Of a DNA stretch of 32,000 nt, positions 2,581-31,031 are shown one piece after another. The translations under genes were made by a program, and so were the position numbers. How positions within the stretch are numbered: position 1 is the first letter of the stretch; each line of letters opens with the position of its first letter. Under the pieces are notes generated by a model. It saw only the letters and a list, made by a program, of their open reading frames with translations. It had not been told where the DNA came from and made no database searches. Source of the DNA: Synechococcus elongatus PCC 6301 (GTDB lineage Bacteria > Cyanobacteriota > Cyanobacteriia > Synechococcales > Synechococcaceae). The stretch covers positions 1 through 32,000 of the forward strand of contig NC_006576.1 in assembly GCF_000010065.1 (NCBI RefSeq). Direction: 5' to 3'.

Positions 2581-3856
2581 GACGGCTCTGCCACATCTGG
2601 GAATCGAAGAATGCGTGGCACTGGCACGGTTGCAGTCGGTCTATCAAGGCACCCAGATGGTACGGGCAATGCTCTCGCCAGAACGGACTGAAGCATTGTC
2701 TTTGCTTCCAGGTGGGCCTCGTCCGGTGGTTTGTCTGCAAGCGTTGATCTCTCGACGGGGAGAGGTGCTGTTCTCGGAGTTCTGGGAAACCGAAGTTGAA
2801 TCTGTCGCCAAGCTCAGCTATGAGCAGGTCAATGGCGTTCTGGCTGGTAAGGAAGATCATGAACTGCGGGAAGTTCTGCGTTGGCTAGCGATCGCGGCTG
2901 GACGGTTGGATAAGAACCGGCGCGGCCTCTGGGGGCGATCGCGACAGGGAGAGTTCAGAGATGATTTGGGGTCAGTAATCACGGGCAAAGCGGAGCAGTT
3001 GATTGCTTCGACGGCGATCTTCTACAACCAGATGGCAGGCGAGAAGCTCAAGCAATCAGGCTTTCCGGCGCTGTTCCGGGTGCAAGACCCAAGACAGGAT
3101 GAGGCGATCGCGCCGTTGTTTGAGGAGCATGGTGGCAATCCAACGGTGTTAGCTCCGTTGATTAGTCACTGTTTGCCGAGAGCACAGCATCGCGTTAAAG
3201 CTGGGCTTCATTGGGCGTTGCAGTTGCCAGCCTATGCGCGATCGTCCAGTCCGCTGCGGCGCTATGAAGATTTGGTCAATCAACGGCAGTTGCTGGCGAT
3301 TTTGAGGGAGAGTCCTTCCTTCTATCCGCCAGAGCTATTGCTGGGGGTTTGCGATCGTTTGCAGGACAAGGCGACGGCGGAGGTGGAGCGGCAGAAGCAA
3401 AAGTCAGAGGAGAAGTGGCTGAGGGCAGCGTCTTCGGTCAAGCAACTAGAAACGGTGACAGAAGGACAGTTTTCAGCGGTGCTGCGACAGGTCTCGGTGA
3501 TTGGCTCGGTGCCGCCAGAGTTGGAGCAGCAGTTACGGGAGCGCTTGGAAAAAGGAAGTCTGACGCCGAAGCATGCGGCGCAGATTCTCTCGGAGGGGTT
3601 TCCTGCGGATCTGAAGCAGGGGTTGATCGACAAGCTCAGTCAGGGGGATCCGCTGCTCAATGGCCTGATGGTGCTCAATACGCTGGGGCAACTGATTGGG
3701 ACAGCTCCGCAGTTTGACTATGAGCCGGCGGAGGGGCAATGGTGTTGTCGCTTGGTTTGGCAGGAGCAACAGGTAGAGGCGATCGCTTCCTCAAAAGTCA
3801 GAGCTAGGGAACTGGCGGCACTGATGGTTCTCAAAGGAATTAGCGTGGCAGAGTAA
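2459..3856 (+). CDS. RNB-domain (RNase II/R family) exoribonuclease-like protein without CSD or S1 domains, 465 aa
   Basis: I chose the ATG at 2459 because the same ATG context is duplicated at 1622. The protein begins directly with RNB motif I (IDGPSSLDLDDGVW) and carries the motif-IV-like SSSPLRRYEDLVNQRQL. No cold-shock or S1 segments are present. The C-terminal ~190 aa are helical and unassigned. Confidence 0.8.
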   Translation: MQTVLTIDGPSSLDLDDGVWAEPVDEQGDRICLTIAIAGVATALPHLGIEECVALARLQSVYQGTQMVRAMLSPERTEALSLLPGGPRPVVCLQALISRRGEVLFSEFWETEVESVAKLSYEQVNGVLAGKEDHELREVLRWLAIAAGRLDKNRRGLWGRSRQGEFRDDLGSVITGKAEQLIASTAIFYNQMAGEKLKQSGFPALFRVQDPRQDEAIAPLFEEHGGNPTVLAPLISHCLPRAQHRVKAGLHWALQLPAYARSSSPLRRYEDLVNQRQLLAILRESPSFYPPELLLGVCDRLQDKATAEVERQKQKSEEKWLRAASSVKQLETVTEGQFSAVLRQVSVIGSVPPELEQQLRERLEKGSLTPKHAAQILSEGFPADLKQGLIDKLSQGDPLLNGLMVLNTLGQLIGTAPQFDYEPAEGQWCCRLVWQEQQVEAIASSKVRARELAALMVLKGISVAE

Positions 3857-4569: not shown

Positions 4570-5064
4570 ATGTTGTGGGCGATCGCCGAGTGCTATCTGC
4601 CCTACTCTGATGGTTGAGGACGCCTCTTTGAGTCGATTTAGGGGTGTGCTTTAGGAAATGCAGCTGCTCTACATCACTAGCATTGAGCGCATGTCGTTAG
4701 ACACCATCACGCGCCAAACTTGCTCAATAGCCCAGCTTTTACTTTGGCATTGATTGTGGTAGTTCTTGCTCTGAGGCTCGGCCCCAACTCGCACAGAACC
4801 ACAGCCAAACCGAACAGTCGAGGATAACTACCAAGCTTGCTTAGCATCAGAGAGGCGGTTATCGACCCTTGTTGAATTGAAGTTGCCAGGGTCTGTCTGT
4901 AAAAACGGGGGAATAGAGCGGGAACTCATTGCAGAACGAACTAGAGCAAAGTTGAGGCTGCAAAAATTCCTCAACAGTAGCTCCCACCTAAAGATGTAGT
5001 TAGAAATCTGGGAGTTTCTATCCCTACCCTCTATCGCTAGATTCCTGCCTCCTCTCGCCCTTAG
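4570..5064 (+). pseudogene. Decayed serine recombinase (resolvase/invertase)
   Basis: Fragments appear in shifting frames, interrupted by several stops. These include [14 protein letters not shown] (compare GDxLVVxxLDRLGRS), [15 protein letters not shown] (the conserved ExERExIxERTxAGL helix) and a C-terminal HTH VVRNLGVSIPTLYR followed by a stop. Confidence 0.6.
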
Positions 5065-5288
5065 TGTGTATTTCCCCCTTGTCTCTGGTCGCCCCACAGT
5101 CTACAAAAATCCCAGCTTCTTTGCCCCTACTATTCCAGGATGATTGGATAGCGAGTTCAGAAACCGGGATTTTTGTTTAGCCTGCTAATAGTTTGTTAAA
5201 CTCAAATGTATATGTTGGGTTATGCTAGTGCTACATTTAACCTACCAAGACTCACACAACCAAAGCTGACAGACCATCAAGCTAGCCT

Positions 5289-6608
5289 CTAGGACACCCA
5301 AGTAGATTTGGGCATGAGGCAGTGGATATGGTAAGCCCCCGATTCCATACGGCCAATACGGGCATCCAGTGCCAAACTCGCTAGGGAGTAGGCATCCAGC
5401 GCTGTTAGCCTCTTTTCGTCTTTGATGCGATTAATCAGCGCTAGCGCCGCTTGGTTCATGGCTTCCATCGCATCGGCGTTGACCGCATGGGTAACGAAAT
5501 CTGTGCGGCTATCCTTCATCGGCAGCGAAGCCATGGCGGGGCCGTTGGTTTTAGGCAGCATGCAATACACACCCTTAAGCTGATTAACGACCTCGGCTAC
5601 CCGAATATCACCATAAGTGGCCATGTAGCGGCGGGCATCTCTGCTATTCAGGCCCTTCCATTCCGCCAGAAACTTGATCGTTTCCTCTTCCATAATGCGG
5701 ATGGCCGTGTTCATATCGCGGTCGTAGCCCACGGTCATCCAATGGGTGTCAGATTCAATTCGGGGCCAAGACAGAGGCTTTTTCTTGATTACTTCTACTG
5801 TGAGGTTGAGTTCGTTGAAGGCCGACTCTACCGCTGTCAGGTTGATTTCGCCGTTGCCCTGCACCGCGTGGGAGTCGCCCGACCATAGCAGTGCCCCTTC
5901 CACAAACACAGGTAAATAAACTGTTGTTCCTTCTACCATTTCCCGGCAGTCCATGTTGCCGCCAAAGGGGCCAGGAGGGACGGTGCTGTATTGGCCGCTC
6001 TCGGCGCGGGCTACACCCAAAATGCCGGGGAAGGGCCGCACCGGTAGCTCGATACCGGGTAGAAATTCGGTCTTGCCACGGGCCATATCCAAGTAAAAAT
6101 ACTTGGCCTGAGGTTTAGGGAAAAGCTTGGGAAATTGACCCAAACCTAACTCACCCGGCAGGTTCCAGTTGCAGCCGTAGGTGCGGGGAACAATCCGGTT
6201 AATTTTTACCTTGAGCACGTCGCCCGGCTCGGCCCCTTCAATAAATACAGGCCCAGTAATGGTGTGAGGGCCACGGCCAGGGTTATCAGCCCGCAGGCGA
6301 GTGATTTCCTCAATGGAAACGCCAGGGAGCACTTGGTTTTGGGAGGCCATCATCGTTTCGAGGATGATGGTATCCCCCGACTTAATACGGGCGCGGGGGG
6401 GTTCGGCATTATTGAACCAGCCCCACTGCACGGTTTCATCGGTAGCAGGCAGGAGATAAACTCCTCCTTGATACTGGCCCACAAAGCCTTCCTTCAGCGC
6501 GATCATTTCCTCACGCTTCTTCTGGGCCTTGGACTTCGAGGGACGCAGCACAGCTGCGGCTGCAGCCGTCGCAGCAGCACCTAACAAAAAATCACGACGT
6601 TTTGCCAC
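5289..6608 (-). CDS. Acetamidase/formamidase-family amidohydrolase with a twin-arginine signal peptide, 439 aa
   Basis: The ORF is full length with a GTG start at 6608. The N-terminus MAKRRDFLLGAAATAAAAAVL is a Tat-type signal. The body (GPHTITGPVFIEGAEPGDVLKV..., GGNMDCREM..., LWSGDSHAVQGNGEI) fits the FmdA/AmdA family. I found no HIP1 site in the gene. Confidence 0.85.
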   Translation of the reverse strand: MAKRRDFLLGAAATAAAAAVLRPSKSKAQKKREEMIALKEGFVGQYQGGVYLLPATDETVQWGWFNNAEPPRARIKSGDTIILETMMASQNQVLPGVSIEEITRLRADNPGRGPHTITGPVFIEGAEPGDVLKVKINRIVPRTYGCNWNLPGELGLGQFPKLFPKPQAKYFYLDMARGKTEFLPGIELPVRPFPGILGVARAESGQYSTVPPGPFGGNMDCREMVEGTTVYLPVFVEGALLWSGDSHAVQGNGEINLTAVESAFNELNLTVEVIKKKPLSWPRIESDTHWMTVGYDRDMNTAIRIMEEETIKFLAEWKGLNSRDARRYMATYGDIRVAEVVNQLKGVYCMLPKTNGPAMASLPMKDSRTDFVTHAVNADAMEAMNQAALALINRIKDEKRLTALDAYSLASLALDARIGRMESGAYHIHCLMPKSTWVS

Positions 6609-24417: not shown

Positions 24418-26613
24418 ATGCATCCCTTGCTAGGATCAGCGGCTGATTCTGTGATGAGATTGGCCATGACCGATGCTGCGATTGAACTGAATCGGCCAGA
24501 AAATTTCTTTAATCGTGAAATTAGCTGGCTGGCTTTCAATCAGCGCGTTCTACACCAAGCCCTCGACCCCCGCACGCCTCTGCTGGAACGCCTCAAGTTC
24601 ATGGGGATTTTCAGCAATAACCTCGATGAATACTTCATGGTGCGCGTGGCGAGTCTCTTGCAGCAAATTGAGGCTGGCGTCAGCAAGCGATCGCCCGATG
24701 GCCTCACCCCAGCGGAGCAACTCGAGCAAATTCGAGCCTGCCTTGGCCCCCTGGTGGAGCAACAACACAGCCATTTCTACCGAGAGCTACGCCCCCTGCT
24801 GGCTGAAACGGGCATCCATCTGCTCAACTACAACGACCTCAACCGCACCCAACAGCGATACCTCGATCAGTATTTCGCAGCGCAGATTTTTCCAGTCTTG
24901 ACACCGCTCGCGGTTGATCCGGCGCACCCCTTCCCCCACATTTCCAATCTCAGTCTCAACTTGGCGGTCTTGATCCAAGACGACAGTGTTGGCGAGGAGC
25001 AGTTTGCGCGGATTAAGGTGCCGAACATTCTGCCGCGCTTTATTGAACTGCCGGCCAAAACCCGCCGGCGATCGCAGCAACCGATTGTCTGGATGGGCGT
25101 ACCGATCGAACAGGTAATCGCCCACAACCTCAGCACGCTTTTCCCAGGCATGAGCGTGATCGATTGGTTTGTCTTCCGTGTCACCCGCGATGCTGACCTC
25201 GATGTCAAGGAAGACGAAGCTGACGATCTGCTGTTGGCGATCGAACAAGAATTGCGTAAGCGACGCCTGGGGGCAGGCTCAGTCGTCCGCCTAGAAATTG
25301 AGGCAGGCTCTCCAGCCTCCATCCTCGAAATCCTGATGAACGGCATGGACCTCGATCCGCAGGATGTCTATGCCCTACCCGGTCTCCTGAGCCTTGAAGA
25401 CCTGATGTCGCTGACGTCCTTGCCGTTGCCCGAACTGAAGGATCAGCCTTGGACGCAAGTGGTTCCCAAGCGATTGCGGCGGGTACAAATGCCCGTTGGC
25501 GAAGACCTGCAGCGTTCTAAGCCCAGTGAGGAAAGCGAAGACATCTTTACGGTGATTCGCCAGCGCGACCTGTTGATGCATCACCCCTACGATTCTTTTG
25601 CGGCTTCAGTCGAACAGTTCGTTGCCCAAGCCGCAACAGATCCCCACGTGCTGGCTATCAAAATGACGCTCTATCGCACCTCGGGAGATTCGCCGATTGT
25701 GCAGAGCCTGATGCAGGCTGCGGAGCATGGCAAGCAGGTGCTCGCTCTTGTAGAACTCAAAGCTCGCTTTGATGAAGAGAACAACATCACCTGGGCGCGG
25801 CGCCTTGAGAAAGCAGGTGTGCATGTTGTCTATGGCTTAGTGGGTCTCAAGATTCACACCAAAGTGGTGTTGGTGGTTCGCCAAGAGCGCAACCAAATCC
25901 GTCGCTATGTTCATATCGGCACCGGCAACTACAACTCCAAAGCAGCCCGCATCTACACTGACTTGGGGCTCTTGAGCTGCCGTGAGGATTTGGGCGCTGA
26001 TATTTCTGAACTCTTCAACTACCTGACGGGTTTCTCGAAGCAACGGGACTATCGCAAGCTGCTGATTGCGCCGGTCAGCTTGCGGGAGCAAATGATCGGC
26101 CTGATCGATCGCGAAATTCAGCATGCGATCGCAGGGCGTCCGGCAGCGATTCGCGCCAAGATGAACTCGCTAGTTGATCCTAAAATCATCCTCAAGCTCT
26201 ATGAGGCCTCACAAGCTGGCGTCGAGATTGATTTGATTGTGCGGGGGGTCTGCTGCCTACGACCGGGTGTGCCGGGGTTGAGCGATCGCATTCGGGTGAT
26301 TAGTATCATTGGCCGCTTCCTCGAACACTCGCGCATCTTCAGCTTCCACAACAACGGCCAGGAAGAGTTTTTCATCGGCAGTGCGGACTGGATGACCCGT
26401 AACCTCGATCGCCGCGTAGAAGCGATTACCCCTATTGAAGATGAAGCGATCGCAGCAGAACTGCGGGCAATCCTGGATATTTCCTTAGCCGACGACCGAC
26501 TGGCCTGGGATTTACTGCCCAGTGGTGAGTACCAACTCCGGCAACCGGTGGATCCCGAGACTCCCCATAGTTCGCAGCAGCAATTCATGAATCGCGCGGC
26601 TACCACCCGCTAG
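24418..26613 (+). CDS. ppk: Polyphosphate kinase 1
   Basis: The N-terminal FFNREISWLAFNQRVL is present, along with the two PLD-like catalytic modules (KIHTKVVLVVRQE and GRFLEHSRIFSF). Length is ~730 aa. In-frame ATGs at codons 13 and 17 are possible alternative starts. Confidence 0.95.
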   Translation: MHPLLGSAADSVMRLAMTDAAIELNRPENFFNREISWLAFNQRVLHQALDPRTPLLERLKFMGIFSNNLDEYFMVRVASLLQQIEAGVSKRSPDGLTPAEQLEQIRACLGPLVEQQHSHFYRELRPLLAETGIHLLNYNDLNRTQQRYLDQYFAAQIFPVLTPLAVDPAHPFPHISNLSLNLAVLIQDDSVGEEQFARIKVPNILPRFIELPAKTRRRSQQPIVWMGVPIEQVIAHNLSTLFPGMSVIDWFVFRVTRDADLDVKEDEADDLLLAIEQELRKRRLGAGSVVRLEIEAGSPASILEILMNGMDLDPQDVYALPGLLSLEDLMSLTSLPLPELKDQPWTQVVPKRLRRVQMPVGEDLQRSKPSEESEDIFTVIRQRDLLMHHPYDSFAASVEQFVAQAATDPHVLAIKMTLYRTSGDSPIVQSLMQAAEHGKQVLALVELKARFDEENNITWARRLEKAGVHVVYGLVGLKIHTKVVLVVRQERNQIRRYVHIGTGNYNSKAARIYTDLGLLSCREDLGADISELFNYLTGFSKQRDYRKLLIAPVSLREQMIGLIDREIQHAIAGRPAAIRAKMNSLVDPKIILKLYEASQAGVEIDLIVRGVCCLRPGVPGLSDRIRVISIIGRFLEHSRIFSFHNNGQEEFFIGSADWMTRNLDRRVEAITPIEDEAIAAELRAILDISLADDRLAWDLLPSGEYQLRQPVDPETPHSSQQQFMNRAATTR

Positions 26614-26670
26614 CGCCCGCTACTCATCAGGGCCATGGATCCGAGCCACACCTGTCCGGTAGATCCCAGT

Positions 26671-26988
26671 TCACTCGGGACGGCGATCGCTGCCTTTGAG
26701 GGGAGAAGAGTCCAGTTGTGGCACCTGTACCGGGAACAACTGAGAACGCTGACCGGGCGATCGCAGCTTGATGTGGCGAGCTAGCTTGAGTTCGGCAACG
26801 GGAGCGCGCAGCTGAGACAATCCTGCCGCAAGGCGGTCGGCAATGTCTGAATTTGGACAATCGATGCGAAGCACAAACCAAAAACGACTGATTTGGCAGT
26901 GACGCATGATCGCCAAATTAGCAACCAAGTCCGGGTCTTCTCAGTAGTAACTCAAGATCAGGTGCTGAAGCTGCTCACTGCGAGACAT
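26671..26988 (-). pseudogene. Hypothetical ORF interrupted by one in-frame TGA (or a shorter 85-aa or 78-aa CDS)
   Basis: The ATG at 26988 gives MSRSEQLQHLILSYY, then TGA (26943-26941), then the same frame continues EDPDLVANLAIMRHCQISRFWFVLRIDCPNSDIADRLAAGLSQL... to 26671. I recognise no motif. Confidence 0.3.
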
Positions 26989-27152
26989 AGGACAAGCAAG
27001 GGTTGGGAATTGTTTTTATTCAAGTCCGCCAACTGAGGAGATTCGAGAGCGCTCCAATTCCCTTAAGCCTGTGTGTCGATTCTGCAATGGAAGCAGGGAA
27101 GAACAAGCCCTCGTTGAGCCCGCTAAGACCGTTGCCCGAAGCCAGAAGACTG

Positions 27153-27329
27153 TCAGCCCTGCTGAGTTTGGGGAGCCGGACAGGTCGTCTGAGATTGGGT
27201 GGTTGGGCAACTGGGGGTGGGTTCAGCCTGTGCCGGGGCGATCGCTCCCAGAGATAGCACGAGACCAAGACCAGTAATCAGTAGGAGAGCAGAATGAATC
27301 CGAATCATGATCAACATCACCTGACTCAT
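27153..27329 (-). CDS. Small secreted or membrane-anchored peptide, 58 aa
   Basis: Below the ORF-track cutoff. Translation: MSQVMLIMIRIHSALLLITGLGLVLSLGAIAPAQA / EPTPSCPTTQSQTTCPAPQTQQG. This is a textbook n-h-c signal peptide with an AQA cleavage motif. Its ATG overlaps the TGA of the upstream ORF (ATGA). Its HIP1 site is read as Ala-Ile-Ala. Confidence 0.5.
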   Translation of the reverse strand: MSQVMLIMIRIHSALLLITGLGLVLSLGAIAPAQAEPTPSCPTTQSQTTCPAPQTQQG

Positions 27330-27565
27330 TTGAATTGGGAAGTAGGCGGCAAGCGATCGCCCCAGAGAAGACCGCTGAACTGGCGAATCTCATCGCTTTG
27401 GGCGCAAAGGATGTCCCCAGAAATCGATCGCACAAAGGAATCCCCCGACTTTGCCAAACCGTCTTCCGCCATCGCGATCGCACTGGGAGTAAGACCGAGC
27501 AACAGACCAAGGCTCGGGCTACCGTTCACCATCCATCTCGCGAGTTTCATGACACGTCTTCCCAT
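27326..27565 (-). CDS. Small putative secreted protein, 79 aa
   Basis: MGRRVMKLARWMVNGSPSLGLLLGLTPSAIAMA / EDGLAKSGDSF... has a signal-peptide-like N-terminus. It starts 57 nt after the cupredoxin gene on the same strand. Its HIP1 site is read as Ala-Ile-Ala. It is mutually exclusive with the plus-strand ORF 27294..27569. Confidence 0.45.
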   Translation of the reverse strand: MGRRVMKLARWMVNGSPSLGLLLGLTPSAIAMAEDGLAKSGDSFVRSISGDILCAQSDEIRQFSGLLWGDRLPPTSQFK

Positions 27566-27622
27566 CTAGAGTCAAGGACTAGAAAAAATGGGTAAGACGG
27601 TCATGTTGGCCTTGGCTGGCCT

Positions 27623-28141
27623 TTAGGCTGAGGCAGGCTGCACTTCGAGCACCCCACGAAACATGGCCATGCCGCAGGTGAACTCGTAGCGACCGGGTTG
27701 GGTGGGGAGGAATTCGATCGCAGTGACTTGGTTATTGGGTAGGTGCTGGGCGATCTGGAAATCGGGGAAGCGGACCTCATCAAGGCAGTGATTGGGATCG
27801 CGGCGATCGAAATGAAGTCGCAGCGGCTGACCGGCTTGGACGACCACATGGCTGGGTTGGTAGCCACCATCCACCGTAATTGTCAGCTCCTGCCATGTCT
27901 CCGCGATCGCAGCTGTCTGGGGTTTGGCGCGGCGCACCAAAAACCACCACAATTCCCAGCCAATCAGGACGAGACCCGCGCCCGTGACGGTTGTTTTAGC
28001 CCAAACAGGTTGGGCGACAGCACGGAAGGGTGCAGCGTCCGAGCCAGTGGTTACCGCGATTGCAGCAGGCGGGGGAGCGACCATCCATCCCGCATTCCCG
28101 ACAGTCAGGGTGCCAGACAAGAACAAAGTTAATAGAGTCAT
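27623..28141 (-). CDS. Membrane-anchored cupredoxin-like domain protein, 172 aa
   Basis: One transmembrane helix (GAGLVLIGWELWWFLV) is followed by a cupredoxin_1-type domain ending YEFTCGMAMFRGVLEV. Genes of this type commonly accompany copper P-type ATPases. It starts 33 nt after pacS. Confidence 0.8.
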   Translation of the reverse strand: MTLLTLFLSGTLTVGNAGWMVAPPPAAIAVTTGSDAAPFRAVAQPVWAKTTVTGAGLVLIGWELWWFLVRRAKPQTAAIAETWQELTITVDGGYQPSHVVVQAGQPLRLHFDRRDPNHCLDEVRFPDFQIAQHLPNNQVTAIEFLPTQPGRYEFTCGMAMFRGVLEVQPASA

Positions 28142-28174
28142 TGATCGGTCCTCAAAAGCAGAGCGACAAGGAAA

Positions 28175-30418
28175 TTAGCGAGGCTGAAACTGGCGTAGTC
28201 GTAGGGCATTAGTCACCACTGAGACAGAGCTAAAGGCCATGGCAGCGCCGGCCAGCATCGGGCTAAGCAACCAACCCAGCAGGGGGTAGAGGATACCTGC
28301 TGCAATGGGAATACCGGCAACGTTGTAGATGAAGGCGAAGAAGAGATTCTGACGAATGTTGGTCATCGTGGCGCGGGAGAGCTGAATCGCCGTGACGATG
28401 CCCTGCAGGTCGCCGGAAATCAAGGTGATGTCATTAGCGGCGATCGCAACATCCGTTCCAGTGCCAATGGCAATCCCCACATCCGCTTGGGCTAGTGCCG
28501 GTGCGTCATTGATGCCATCCCCGACCATCGCTACGACTTGACCGCGACTTTGGAGCTGGGCGACCTGGGCTGCTTTTTGGTCGGGTCGCACTTCTGCGAG
28601 GACTTGAGTAATACCCACGGCCTGGGCGATCGCGTCTGCGGTGCGGCGGTTATCGCCTGTCAGCATGACGACCTGTAGTCCCAGTCGTTGCAGCGATCGC
28701 ACCACGGCGACTGAGCTGGGTTTGAGCTGATCGGCAATGCTGAGAATTGCTTGCAGGTGACCGTCAGCGGCGACCCCGACTACGGTTTTGCCTGCAGCTT
28801 CCCAGTCTTCCCACTGATTCTGTAGAGCAGAGGTTTCAATACCCAATTCACCAAGCCAGCGCTGAGTGCCAATCTGGAGCCAGATGCCTTCAACCTGACC
28901 CTGAACACCACTGCCAGGAATGGCCTCAAAGTCCGTGACAGTCGAGAGTGTGATTCCTTGAGCTTCGCCATAGCGAACGATCGCTTCAGCTAAAGGATGC
29001 TCGGAGTAGTTCTCAAGACTTGCTGCCCAACCGAGTAGGGTTTGCTGTTGGTCGCGATCGCCGATCGCCAGAAAATCAGTGACACTGGGCTGTCCTTGGG
29101 TGAGAGTGCCGGTTTTATCGAGGATGACGGTCTGAATTGTTTGCGCCAGCTCCAAGCTCTCGGCACTTTTAATCAAAATGCCGTACTCAGCGCCTTTGCC
29201 TGTTCCGACCATGATGGAGGTCGGGGTTGCCAGCCCTAACGCACAGGGACAGGCAATGATCAGGACACCAACCGCCGTGATCAGGGCTAAGGTCACGTTG
29301 CCTATCCAGTTAAACCAGAGCACAAAGGTGAGGATGGCGATCGCAATCACCGCTGGCACAAACCAGCCTGTCACTTGATCCGCCAAGCGCTGAATCGGGG
29401 CTTTGGAAGCTTGCGCCTGCTGCACGAGTTGGACAATCTGTGCCAGAAAAGTTTCACGGCCAACCCGAGTCGCCCGTATCGTCAAGCTGCCAGTTTTATT
29501 GAGGGTGGCGCCAATCACCTCATCGCCGACTTGTTTCTGGACAGGTAGACTTTCACCCGTGACCATCGACTCATCCACGGTCGACCGTCCATCGATAACC
29601 TCACCATCGACTGGAACTTTTTCCCCAGGTCGAACCCGCACCCAGTCCTCTACTTGAACTTCCGTAATTGGCAGGGTGAGTTCCTGGCCTTGGCGCAGTA
29701 CTCGCGCAGTTTTGGCCTGCAAGCCAATTAACTGCCGAATCGCGGCGGAGGTCTGCCCCTTGGCACGCTCCTCGAGCGATCGCCCCAGTAACAGCAGGGC
29801 AATGATCACCGCGATCGCTTCGTAGTAGACATCCGGCGGCAGCCCCTGACGGGTTAACCACTGGGGAAACAGGGTGACTGCTAAGGAGTAGAGGAAGGCG
29901 GCACCGGTTCCCACTGCCACCAAGGTATCCATCGTGGCGGTGTTTTGACGGAAGGCTTTCCAGGCATTGATGAAGAAACTCCGCCCCGCCCACAACACCG
30001 GTAGCGTCAGCCCCAGTTGGAGCCCAGGATGGTGCAGCCACATGGGAATGCCTGGAATTGAGATGCCTAGCATCATCGGCAGCGAGCCAATCACCAATAA
30101 GCTGGCGATTAGTCCACTCACCCACACTCGCTGGGCCAATTGCCGTTGCGATCGGGCACGGCGATGCCGCTCCTGCGCTTCAACTTCGTTATCCCAGGGG
30201 TCTTGGAGGGGAAAAGCGTGGTAGCCTGCAGCCTCAATAGCGGCCTGAATCGCTGCCACCTGAGTCAAAGCGGGGTCATAGCAGACCTGCGCCTGCTCTG
30301 CACCAAAATTGACGCTGCACTCCTGCACCCCCGGCAATGCCTGAATGAGGGCTTCAATACGACCCGCACAAGCAGCACAGCCCATGCCTCGCAGCGTCAG
30401 AGTTTGCTGATTGACCAT
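28175..30418 (-). CDS. pacS: Copper-transporting P1B-type ATPase PacS, 747 aa
   Basis: The N-terminal HMA domain ([12 protein letters not shown]), the CPC motif ([13 protein letters not shown]), the phosphorylation site (DKTGTLT) and the hinge ([11 protein letters not shown]) are all present. The sequence and length match what I remember of PacS from S. elongatus PCC 7942. Confidence 0.95.
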
Positions 30419-30473
30419 GACTGGACTCCAGACTCGAACGTAGCTCTAATCGTCCCCAGTCTTAAGTCTCTAG

Positions 30474-30489
30474 TTGACTGCAGAGTCAA
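30474..30489. promoter_or_regulatory. Inverted repeat upstream of pacS (candidate operator or -35 region)
   Basis: TTGACT-GCAG-AGTCAA has 6-bp arms and a 4-nt spacer, 56-71 nt upstream of the pacS ATG. On the pacS strand the arm reads TTGACT, followed about 18 nt later by TTAAGA. Confidence 0.25.
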
Positions 30490-31031
30490 GACGAGTGACA
30501 AAACTTCTCTTAAAAGCGCGATCGCCCTGCCCCAGCCCAATTGGGCCTCTTTCGACCTGCTCTACTGCTTGCTCCCAGACGTAGCCAAGCTGAGGAGAGA
30601 ACGATCGGAGTCAAGCACATGTTAAGGCTCAAGTGCTTTGCCCGCTTGAGCGACGGCCCCTCGTCAATGCCTCTTTCGTTTTGTCGAACCGCATTGGATC
30701 CACTAGCAACTATGAGCTTGAGCAGGACGTTTTAAGCATGTTGAGCTCTTCTATTGCCCCAGATTCAGCGCTCAGGCCTTCGTTACGCTAGTGGCATTGA
30801 AGTCAGTTAGTTGAATGAGCTGTAATCAAGGTGCGATCGCCTTTCCTTTGGTTATTGGCTCACAACCTGAAGGGTAAACATTAGGCTGACAGTCCGTGCT
30901 GGCTTGAGTCAATCAGCCTGATCCGGTCAGTTGATCCCAGCCATCGCCTATCTCTGACTCGACTGGGATCATCATTCGTTCCTGCCTCTGCGCAACGACG
31001 ACCCACTCCATTCCTCTGCGATCCAGTCTCT

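Follow-up and report, generated by a model that had tools for sequence, protein, structure and literature searches.

Two small open reading frames behind pacS in Synechococcus elongatus PCC 6301 probably represent the decaying 3′ half of a copper gene cluster

Results

The pacS–cupredoxin locus and its two small open reading frames

The window analysed here comprises 32,000 nucleotides (positions 1–32,000 of contig NC_006576.1) of the Synechococcus elongatus PCC 6301 genome, in which a pacS-type copper ATPase gene and a cupredoxin gene are followed, on the same strand, by two short open reading frames (ORFs), 79 and 58 amino acids (aa) long, referred to as ORF79 and ORF58. The ORF list confirmed what a first-pass annotation of this DNA had described, namely that ORF79 (27326..27565, minus strand) and ORF58 (27153..27329, minus strand) lie directly after pacS and the cupredoxin gene, and that the ATG of ORF58 (27329–27327) overlaps the TGA of ORF79 (27328–27326) as ATGA (27329–27326). 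The HIP1 site (GCGATCGC) embedded in each frame is indeed read as Ala-Ile-Ala (27481–27474 in ORF79). The first two genes of the cluster are the following:

28175..30418, minus strand: pacS-type copper-translocating P1B ATPase of 747 aa, first gene of the cluster (Pfam HMA, E1-E2_ATPase and Hydrolase; TIGR01511 ATPase-IB1_Cu, 684 bits against a cut-off of 397)
27623..28141, minus strand: membrane-anchored Cupredoxin_1 protein of 172 aa, second gene (PF13473, E 1.9e-20)

Because 58 to 79 open codons are unremarkable by chance, the small ORFs were counted as real features on the basis of homology rather than length. Relatives of the locus were reached via homologues of the cupredoxin gene. The window was compared with a syntenic outgroup taken from an SRA assembly (L009, with L010 alike), with the chromosome of S. 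elongatus IITB6 (L011; CP143871.1, whose proteins are identical to PCC 11802 entries), with UTEX 3055-type chromosomes that are 98.7% identical to the window (L001–L008), with three independent and mutually identical PCC 7942-type assemblies (L111–L113), and with the plasmids pANL (L109), pMAL (L110), pIITB3_1 and pIITB6_1. Over the ORF79–ORF58 stretch, all three PCC 7942-type assemblies are identical in sequence to the window.

ORF79 as the relic of a CopM/DUF305 gene

27326..27565, minus strand: ORF79, a signal peptide fused to the last ~39 residues of a CopM/DUF305 protein (homology, synteny and pairwise DNA alignment)
27470..27481, minus strand: deletion junction GCGATCGCGATG with HIP1 inside (a single copy of the 12-mer in the window, two in L009)

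Elsewhere, ORF79 has been annotated either as a 74-aa protein or as a truncated 62-aa "DUF305 domain-containing protein" (WP_238154198.1, NCBI). It scored 18.1 bits against Pfam DUF305 (PF03713), below the gathering threshold of 27, with residues 28–66 corresponding to profile positions 112–150 of 151, and 18.5 bits against NCBIfam CopM (NF049983), below the cut-off of 90. ORF79 also matched DUF305 structures (PDB 7vw0), in which TPSAIAMAED was aligned to the conserved ..HEGAIAMAE helix.

In L009, whose cupredoxin is ~80% identical to that of the window, the gene order is cupredoxin, a 211-aa DUF305 protein, a small ORF, a 105-aa gene, a convergent ppk and TerB, so that ORF79 and the L009 copM-like gene occupy the same slot, with the cupredoxin gene on one side and the small ORF, 105-aa gene and ppk on the other. 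The 211-aa protein passes both family cut-offs (91.8 against 27 bits for Pfam DUF305 and 94.3 against 90 for NCBIfam CopM) and matches Synechocystis CopM (5FEJ, E 3.4e-11), and a phmmer comparison of ORF79 with it returned an E-value of 1.6e-14. ORF79 corresponds to the first ~27 residues (MKL...LGLTP.AIAM) and the last 39 residues (AIAMAEDALAKSGDSFVRSISWDIIRTQSDEIRQLRGLL) of this protein. Moreover, the 12-mer GCGATCGC(G/C)ATG stands at L009 positions 990 and 1437, in two copies that are 11/12 identical and 447 bp, or 149 codons, apart. Because L009 holds two copies of this 12-mer and the window only one, the intervening segment was lost between HIP1-containing direct repeats, and by this alignment ORF79 is a copM gene minus 447 bp, removed in frame between two 12-bp repeats.

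HIP1 has been implicated in site-specific recombination in Synechococcus and flanks an inversion in PCC 7942 (Adomako et al. 2022, PMC9239245). The copM deletion likewise ends at GCGATCGC-containing repeats, but is a 447-bp intragenic deletion that slippage or short-homology recombination explains equally well.

The His-His motif (..PHH.GAI.MA..), which defines the DUF305 domains of CopM (PMC4335983), is absent from ORF79, which reads LTPSAIAMAED where L009 has IPHHEMAIAMAED; both such motifs fall within the deleted 149 codons or at the edge of the deletion. ORF79 is therefore related to CopM by descent, and not by family score or by His-His motif. The first-pass annotation had presented ORF79 as a novel small peptide, a view that gives way to that of an internally deleted CopM/DUF305 gene. 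It had also described both small ORFs as beginning with signal-peptide-like sequences, which holds for the N-termini as such; the cleavage site it proposed in ORF79 (AIAMA/ED), however, is the deletion junction, and AIAMAED itself is a conserved DUF305 helix, usually found after the His-His motif.

CopM of Synechocystis sp. PCC 6803 (Sll0788, two DUF305 repeats, PDB 5FEJ) is a periplasmic and partly extracellular copper-binding protein whose homologues adjoin copper ATPases (Giner-Lamia et al. 2015, PMC4335983). The L009 211-aa orthologue is alike in having a signal peptide, two DUF305 repeats and His-His motifs, and its gene adjoins a copper ATPase gene as reported, whereas ORF79 retains the signal peptide and last helix only. 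In further contrast to Synechocystis, the S. elongatus chromosomal genes follow pacS and the cupredoxin gene and form no copMRS operon.

The pattern of substitution in ORF79 was examined with the NG86 method. Over the C-terminal 39 codons, the ratio of nonsynonymous to synonymous change (omega) was 0.054 between L009 and L011 (full-length coding sequence) and 0.26 between the window and L009. Splitting the pairwise counts by branch assigned ~7.25 nonsynonymous and 2.75 synonymous changes to the window and ~0 and 4.25, respectively, to L009, which corresponds to an omega of ~0.8 on the window branch and includes the loss of the conserved Trp of SISWDII. These counts suggest that ORF79 is evolving nearly neutrally on the window branch. 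It might instead be argued that the deletion created a new secreted single-helix mini-protein that has since been kept by selection, given that the deletion is in frame, that the ORF is open in both the PCC 7942/6301 and the UTEX 3055 types, and that NCBI carries it as an annotated gene. We consider such a re-use of ORF79 unlikely. Besides the branch omega and the lost Trp, of the five differences that separate the two types, four are nonsynonymous or affect the start or stop (R4G, M6V by ATG/GTG, R11K, and stop versus Trp) and one is synonymous; the hydrophobic core of the signal peptide is broken up (ARWMVNGSP); the C-terminus varies in length; and 79 bp upstream of ORF79 are missing.

A different lesion was seen in L011, where a perfect 92-bp tandem duplication (5977–6162) cuts the chromosomal copM-like gene into ORFs of 141 and 106 aa, and where removal of one duplicate copy yields a 215-aa CopM-like ORF. 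If the duplication is not an assembly artefact, chromosomal copM would have been inactivated a second time, independently.

The ATGA overlap and the start of the small gene

27362..27364, minus strand: TGG at the position of the ancestral stop (TAG in the UTEX 3055-type chromosome, L009 and L011)
27306..27308, minus strand: conserved ATG start, Met8 of ORF58 (MIR, MTR and MF starts aligned in all seven family members)

In L001, L009 and L011 the copM frame ends in ...GLL-TAG, 36 nt upstream of the overlap, and TGG at this position was found in the window type only. The TAG-to-TGG read-through adds 12 codons (27361–27329) and thereby produces the ATGA overlap. In L009, moreover, the position of ATG 27329 is occupied by ACG, and that of the third codon of the window frame (CAG) by TAG. 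The overlap was therefore not conserved in relatives, and because these keep the TAG stop and L009 is without an ATG at 27329, it is, judging from the alignments, a recent accident rather than conserved translational coupling. Because of the in-frame TAG just upstream in L009, ATG 27308 is the only start common to all family members. It is preceded by a Shine-Dalgarno-like AGGTG (27322–27318) in the window and by AGGAG, 9 nt upstream, in L011 and pANL.

These observations bear on the first-pass proposal, in which each of the two ORFs would give a working small peptide of the periplasm or lumen, coupled through the ATGA and forming a four-gene operon with PacS and the cupredoxin. The genes do share a strand, with short gaps, an overlap and signal-peptide-like N-termini, no terminator-like minus-strand site was seen in 26500–31000, and the ORF58 family appears real (see below). 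A promoter/terminator scan combined with RNA folds likewise yielded no convincing terminator from pacS to the end of ORF58, and no sigma-70-like promoter. Nevertheless, we regard the four-gene operon as quite improbable, since its third gene is a deleted CopM gene without His-His motifs that evolves nearly neutrally, since the overlap on which the coupling depends occurs in the window type only, with TAG 36 nt upstream in relatives and ACG followed by an in-frame TAG in L009, and since on pANL, pMAL and pIITB6_1 the small ORF follows a CopM-type gene without an ATPase in the stretch examined. An ancestral order of ATPase, cupredoxin, a third gene and the small ORF did exist, so that the notion of a four-gene cluster survives in part, but the small peptide is tied to CopM and not to PacS.

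The small Cys/His peptide gene family

27153..27329, minus strand: ORF58, longest frame; the conserved gene spans 27153–27308 and encodes 51 aa (ORF list and family alignment)
27225..27308, minus strand: putative Sec-type signal peptide MIRIHSALLLITGLGLVLSLGAIAPAQA with basic n-region, hydrophobic core and A-Q-A (read by eye from the sequence)
27156..27224, minus strand: predicted mature peptide EPTPSCPTTQSQTTCPAPQTQQG of 23 residues, with two CP nine residues apart (codon alignment, NG86)

The 23-residue C-terminal peptide with its two CP dipeptides had been described correctly. Exact-sequence look-ups of ORF58 (as 58, 54 and 51 aa) found none in the protein collection, although gene callers predict the gene in other assemblies (54 aa in Logan; 51 aa in NCBI GCA_051658205.1), and a homologous-protein search with ORF79 and ORF58 returned only themselves plus a frameshifted variant. 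At the ORF58 position, L009 and L011 carry homologous ORFs of 51 and 50 aa. An exhaustive HMMER search of 1.84 billion representatives gave three matches, all S. elongatus-type, namely P0073 (50 aa), P0074 (54 aa) and, from the UTEX 3055-type chromosome, the copy with the frameshift. P0073 is encoded 52 nt 3′ of a gene for a 207-aa DUF305 protein on pANL (NC_007595.1), the large PCC 7942/6301 plasmid, and the PLSDB gene table has no entry for it; P0074 comes from the UTEX 3055 plasmid pMAL, where it stands behind two DUF305 genes under the label "hypothetical protein". Two further members were found on pIITB3_1 and pIITB6_1, the former in the order ATPase, cupredoxin, DUF305, DUF305, small ORF and a convergent two-component system annotated rppB/rppA.

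The family comprises seven distinct sequences, all from S. elongatus, which share a signal-peptide-like N-terminus ending in AxA/E and a core CP-x2-Q-x-QTTCPAPQ; the invariant core is present in the window, where the sequence after AxA/E is SCPTTQSQTTCPAPQ. The putative signal peptide of ORF58 runs from MIR through a hydrophobic core (Kyte-Doolittle maximum of 2.6 over 10 residues) to A-Q-A/E, and its layout, assessed by eye and by hydrophobicity, is the same in all seven. On chromosomes and plasmids alike, every member has a CopM-type DUF305 gene ahead of it on its own strand, at a distance of 50–100 nt; the intact copM–small ORF cases are L009, L011, pANL, pMAL, pIITB3_1 and pIITB6_1, and the window copy follows the copM relic.

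Five members were compared with one another, and over the ten resulting pairs the proportion of synonymous differences (pS) was 0.28–0.84 and that of nonsynonymous differences (pN) 0.10–0.29 (Fisher p <= 6e-4, save 0.006 for the closest pair). The start, the AxA/E site and the Cys and Pro residues are kept via different codons (TGC/TGT and CCA/CCC/CCG/CCT). Because synonymous changes dominate and Cys and Pro are preserved through differing codons, the ORF58 family is a real gene family under purifying selection and bears the mark of translated genes. Conservation of a non-coding element instead, either an RNA or a regulatory site, would fit a short ORF with a low-complexity mature part that resembles no solved structure or protein family (the small peptide had no match in Pfam, NCBIfam or the PDB). 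We rejected it as highly improbable, given the bias towards synonymous sites (pS up to 0.84 against a pN of ~0.2), the start, cleavage site and both Cys kept despite different codons, and the lack of an Rfam match.

No further members were found in other collections. A profile search with the small-peptide alignment against genome and metagenome contigs gave none, a weak negative as this collection seems to be without the window's species (the cupredoxin query gave no S. elongatus locus there). A metagenome scan with the L009 CopM-like protein recovered distant DUF305 loci only, without a small-ORF homologue. When every ORF from 80 other cyanobacterial cupredoxin loci was searched with a hidden Markov model of the small peptide, none proved to be a member, and the ORFs 3′ of 43 DUF305 ORFs from cyanobacterial and metagenome loci included no analogous secreted Cys peptide. 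In the literature we found no paper mentioning Synpcc7942_1568–1570, or pacS together with the cupredoxin in S. elongatus, and no S. elongatus Ribo-seq or small-protein study covering the ORF79/ORF58 locus. With its members "hypothetical" or unannotated, the family appears to be undescribed.

Full-length DUF305 genes of Microcoleus and related organisms are followed, after ~20–40 nt, by a short ORF of 35–41 aa (e.g. MTQIHNMSDMNHSRSIVQE.LASQ.QEIEDMKKWRQ.WYKQ), observed at loci L064, L065, L068, L070, L071, L078, L085, L088, L091 and L092. This ORF resembles the last DUF305 helix, and may represent either a half-domain gene or a relic that recurs.

Probable erosion of the chromosomal copy and the intact plasmid modules

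The plasmid modules of S. elongatus (pANL in PCC 7942/6301, pMAL in UTEX 3055, pIITB3_1 and pIITB6_1) encode the same CopM subtype, with the C-terminus ...AIAMAEDALAKSGDSFVRSISW[DE]IIRTQSDEIRRLRGLL and the small ORF 50–100 nt downstream. In contrast to the chromosomal copy of the window, the copies on plasmids are intact, still carry the His tail and adjoin a convergent two-component system annotated RppB/RppA. The predicted mature peptide of pANL would be ESTPSCPKSQAQTTCPAPQNNNHQHQH. Upstream, the plasmids have a TTTCAT-N5-TTTCAA direct repeat and not the palindrome of the chromosomes (see below). This conserved repeat, TTTCATCGCGATTTCAA, lies upstream of the copM-type genes at ~3230–3290 in pANL and ~1910–1970 in pMAL, and by analogy is of the type bound by OmpR-family response regulators, of which the adjacent RppA may be an example.

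The window copy of the small gene lacks the Asn/His-rich tail and ends in TQQG (codons 27167–27156), as does the UTEX 3055-type chromosome, whereas the six other members have His-rich ends (NHQH, NHQHNH, NNNHQHQH, NNNHQGHH or NNNHQHHH). Parsimony placed five derived amino-acid changes on the window branch, three of them in the tail, against none in L009. In the UTEX 3055-type chromosome, a 4-bp deletion (~27199–27203) causes loss of the frame after EPTPSCPT, and with it of the second CP and its Cys. The frame and both Cys of ORF58 are thus conserved under purifying selection at orthologous and paralogous loci, with this frameshifted copy as the exception; the first-pass annotation had named non-conserved frames at orthologous loci as a ground for refutation, and this copy bears that out in part. 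These changes suggest that the window copy is probably decaying alongside copM. The loss of small-gene features coincides with the destruction of copM, which fits both a dependence on CopM and redundancy with the intact pANL and pMAL pairs.

Flanking sequences and neighbouring genes

27566..27622, minus strand: cupredoxin–copM intergenic region, shortened (alignment with L009 and L011)
26671..26988, minus strand: homologue of Synpcc7942_1567, hypothetical, 105 aa, next gene downstream; outside the copper module and marking its end

The cupredoxin–copM spacers of L009 (805–840) and L011 (~5560–5600) contain a near-identical imperfect palindrome, CTTGAC(C/T)CTACAGCTAGCTCAAGGGTTGAGACT, the conservation of which stands out because synonymous sites between these lineages are saturated. 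It bears a likeness to a long-spacer operator of the MerR type. Just the left part of this element (CTTGACTCTA, 27576–27567) survives in the window, because a 79-bp segment (L009 826–904) is gone at ~27567/27566.

The cupredoxin protein has 59 cyanobacterial homologues, the genes of which usually adjoin P-type ATPase genes. In the UTEX 3055-type cupredoxin (L001 4189–4707), Ser replaces the Gly of the C-G-M motif (FTCSMAMFRG), a residue that is invariant in 30 aligned cyanobacterial homologues, so this protein may be impaired. In L013/L014 a copper ATPase gene is followed by that of a 300-aa protein with two tandem Cupredoxin_1-like halves (5001–5903), and then by a DUF305 gene, a gene for an 80-aa membrane protein rich in His and Gly, and a MerR regulator gene, in this order; the arrangement is a richer version of the copper ATPase–cupredoxin–DUF305 cluster.

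Downstream of the module, the 105-aa homologue of Synpcc7942_1567 is broken in the window by a TGA at 26943–26941. This stems from a C-to-T difference at 26943, which affects codon 16 and is one of five differences in 3.2 kb between the window and L111–L113 (26943, 26907, 26830, 28412 and 28434); the gene is intact in ABB57597.1. Because PCC 6301 was re-sequenced by Adomako et al. (2022) owing to doubtful single-nucleotide polymorphisms (PMC9239245), sequencing errors may account for these five differences. Upstream of the 105-aa gene lies a non-coding block (27000–27093, minus strand) in which the window and L009 (~1795–1890) agree at 90 of 94 positions (95.7% identity), compared with 85% for the small ORF and 45% for the 40-nt spacer before the block. 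It has a modest predicted fold (z –1.9) and no Rfam match, and could be a promoter, a 5′ untranslated region or a small RNA. An Rfam scan of 26400–28300 gave nothing credible.

Discussion

We read ORF79 and ORF58 as the decaying 3′ half of an ancestral copper cluster in which pacS and the cupredoxin gene were followed by copM (DUF305) and a gene for a small, putatively secreted Cys/His peptide, and put the probability of this reading at roughly 0.8. None of the alternatives fits the comparative data as well, and the last of these, a 91-aa gene on the plus strand (27294..27569, MNPNHDQHH...), can be rejected with hardly any residual doubt since this longest frame of the interval, for all its His-rich start, has no family match, lies antisense to a frame homologous to CopM, spans the deletion junction and so cannot predate the deletion, and has counterparts of just 29–36 aa among the antisense frames of L009.

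In this course of events, copM lost its central part by recombination or slippage between the 12-bp direct repeats. The conserved product of the small gene is a 50–55-aa precursor, starting at the equivalent of ATG 27308, which after Sec export and signal-peptidase cleavage at AxA/E would become a periplasmic or extracellular peptide of 23–27 residues. Copper may be bound, or passed to or from CopM, by the two Cys-Pro sites that are invariant in the peptide and by the His-rich tail at its C-terminus. In the clade of PCC 7942/6301 and UTEX 3055, copM is destroyed and the small gene is without its His tail, with a frameshift in one sub-lineage. The chromosomal small gene of this clade is probably non-functional or being lost, and the intact copM–peptide pair of pANL may supply its function.

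Several observations weigh against this reading. ORF79 is still open and in frame in two lineages (PCC 7942/6301 and UTEX 3055 types), and may have a residual role as a mini-protein. In the window, ORF58 retains its frame, its Shine-Dalgarno-like sequence, its putative signal peptide and the two Cys residues, three independent assemblies agree on its sequence, and omega on the window branch is ~0.5 and not 1, so that a functional product may still be made. Furthermore, the substitution counts are small and most pairs are saturated at synonymous sites, plasmid and chromosomal copies may have exchanged sequence by gene conversion, and the outgroup L009 is an SRA assembly.

We infer a copper-related function for the small peptide. 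That the 50–55-aa gene encodes an unrecognised secreted copper-handling peptide that acts with CopM, in the periplasm or outside the cell, and that the window copy is a natural partial knock-out of it, is a tentative proposal that we hold at clearly less than even odds. Such a partner of CopM would, for example, capture copper and pass it to or from CopM, or serve as a small disposable copper sink. Small periplasmic copper-binding proteins such as CopK, PcoE, CusF and CopC are Sec-exported, encoded inside copper-resistance clusters and equipped with metal-binding side chains. The peptide family is likewise small, encoded in a copper cluster and provided with a putative Sec-type signal, and metal binding is predicted for it. 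We found no sequence or fold relationship, however, and its Pro/Thr/Gln-rich mature peptides of 23–27 residues, with two Cys and a His tail, are not Met-rich.

As a consequence of these findings, the 74–79-aa "hypothetical/DUF305" gene after pacS and the cupredoxin gene would be reannotated as a pseudogene relic in a model cyanobacterium, and its ATGA overlap with the next frame provides no evidence of coupling. The locus also offers a clean, datable case in which HIP1-containing repeats bound an in-frame deletion. More widely the impact is modest, because the family is confined to one species group and its copper function is putative. Within S. elongatus, a small conserved gene that is easily missed (it is unannotated on pANL in PLSDB and "hypothetical" elsewhere) always accompanies CopM. 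A preprint reports a "CopR iModulon / copMRS" response in PCC 7942 (10.1101/2025.07.21.665879). With its intact pair on pANL, the small gene adds a component to CopM-type copper modules and opens one concrete question on copper handling by CopM in PCC 7942.

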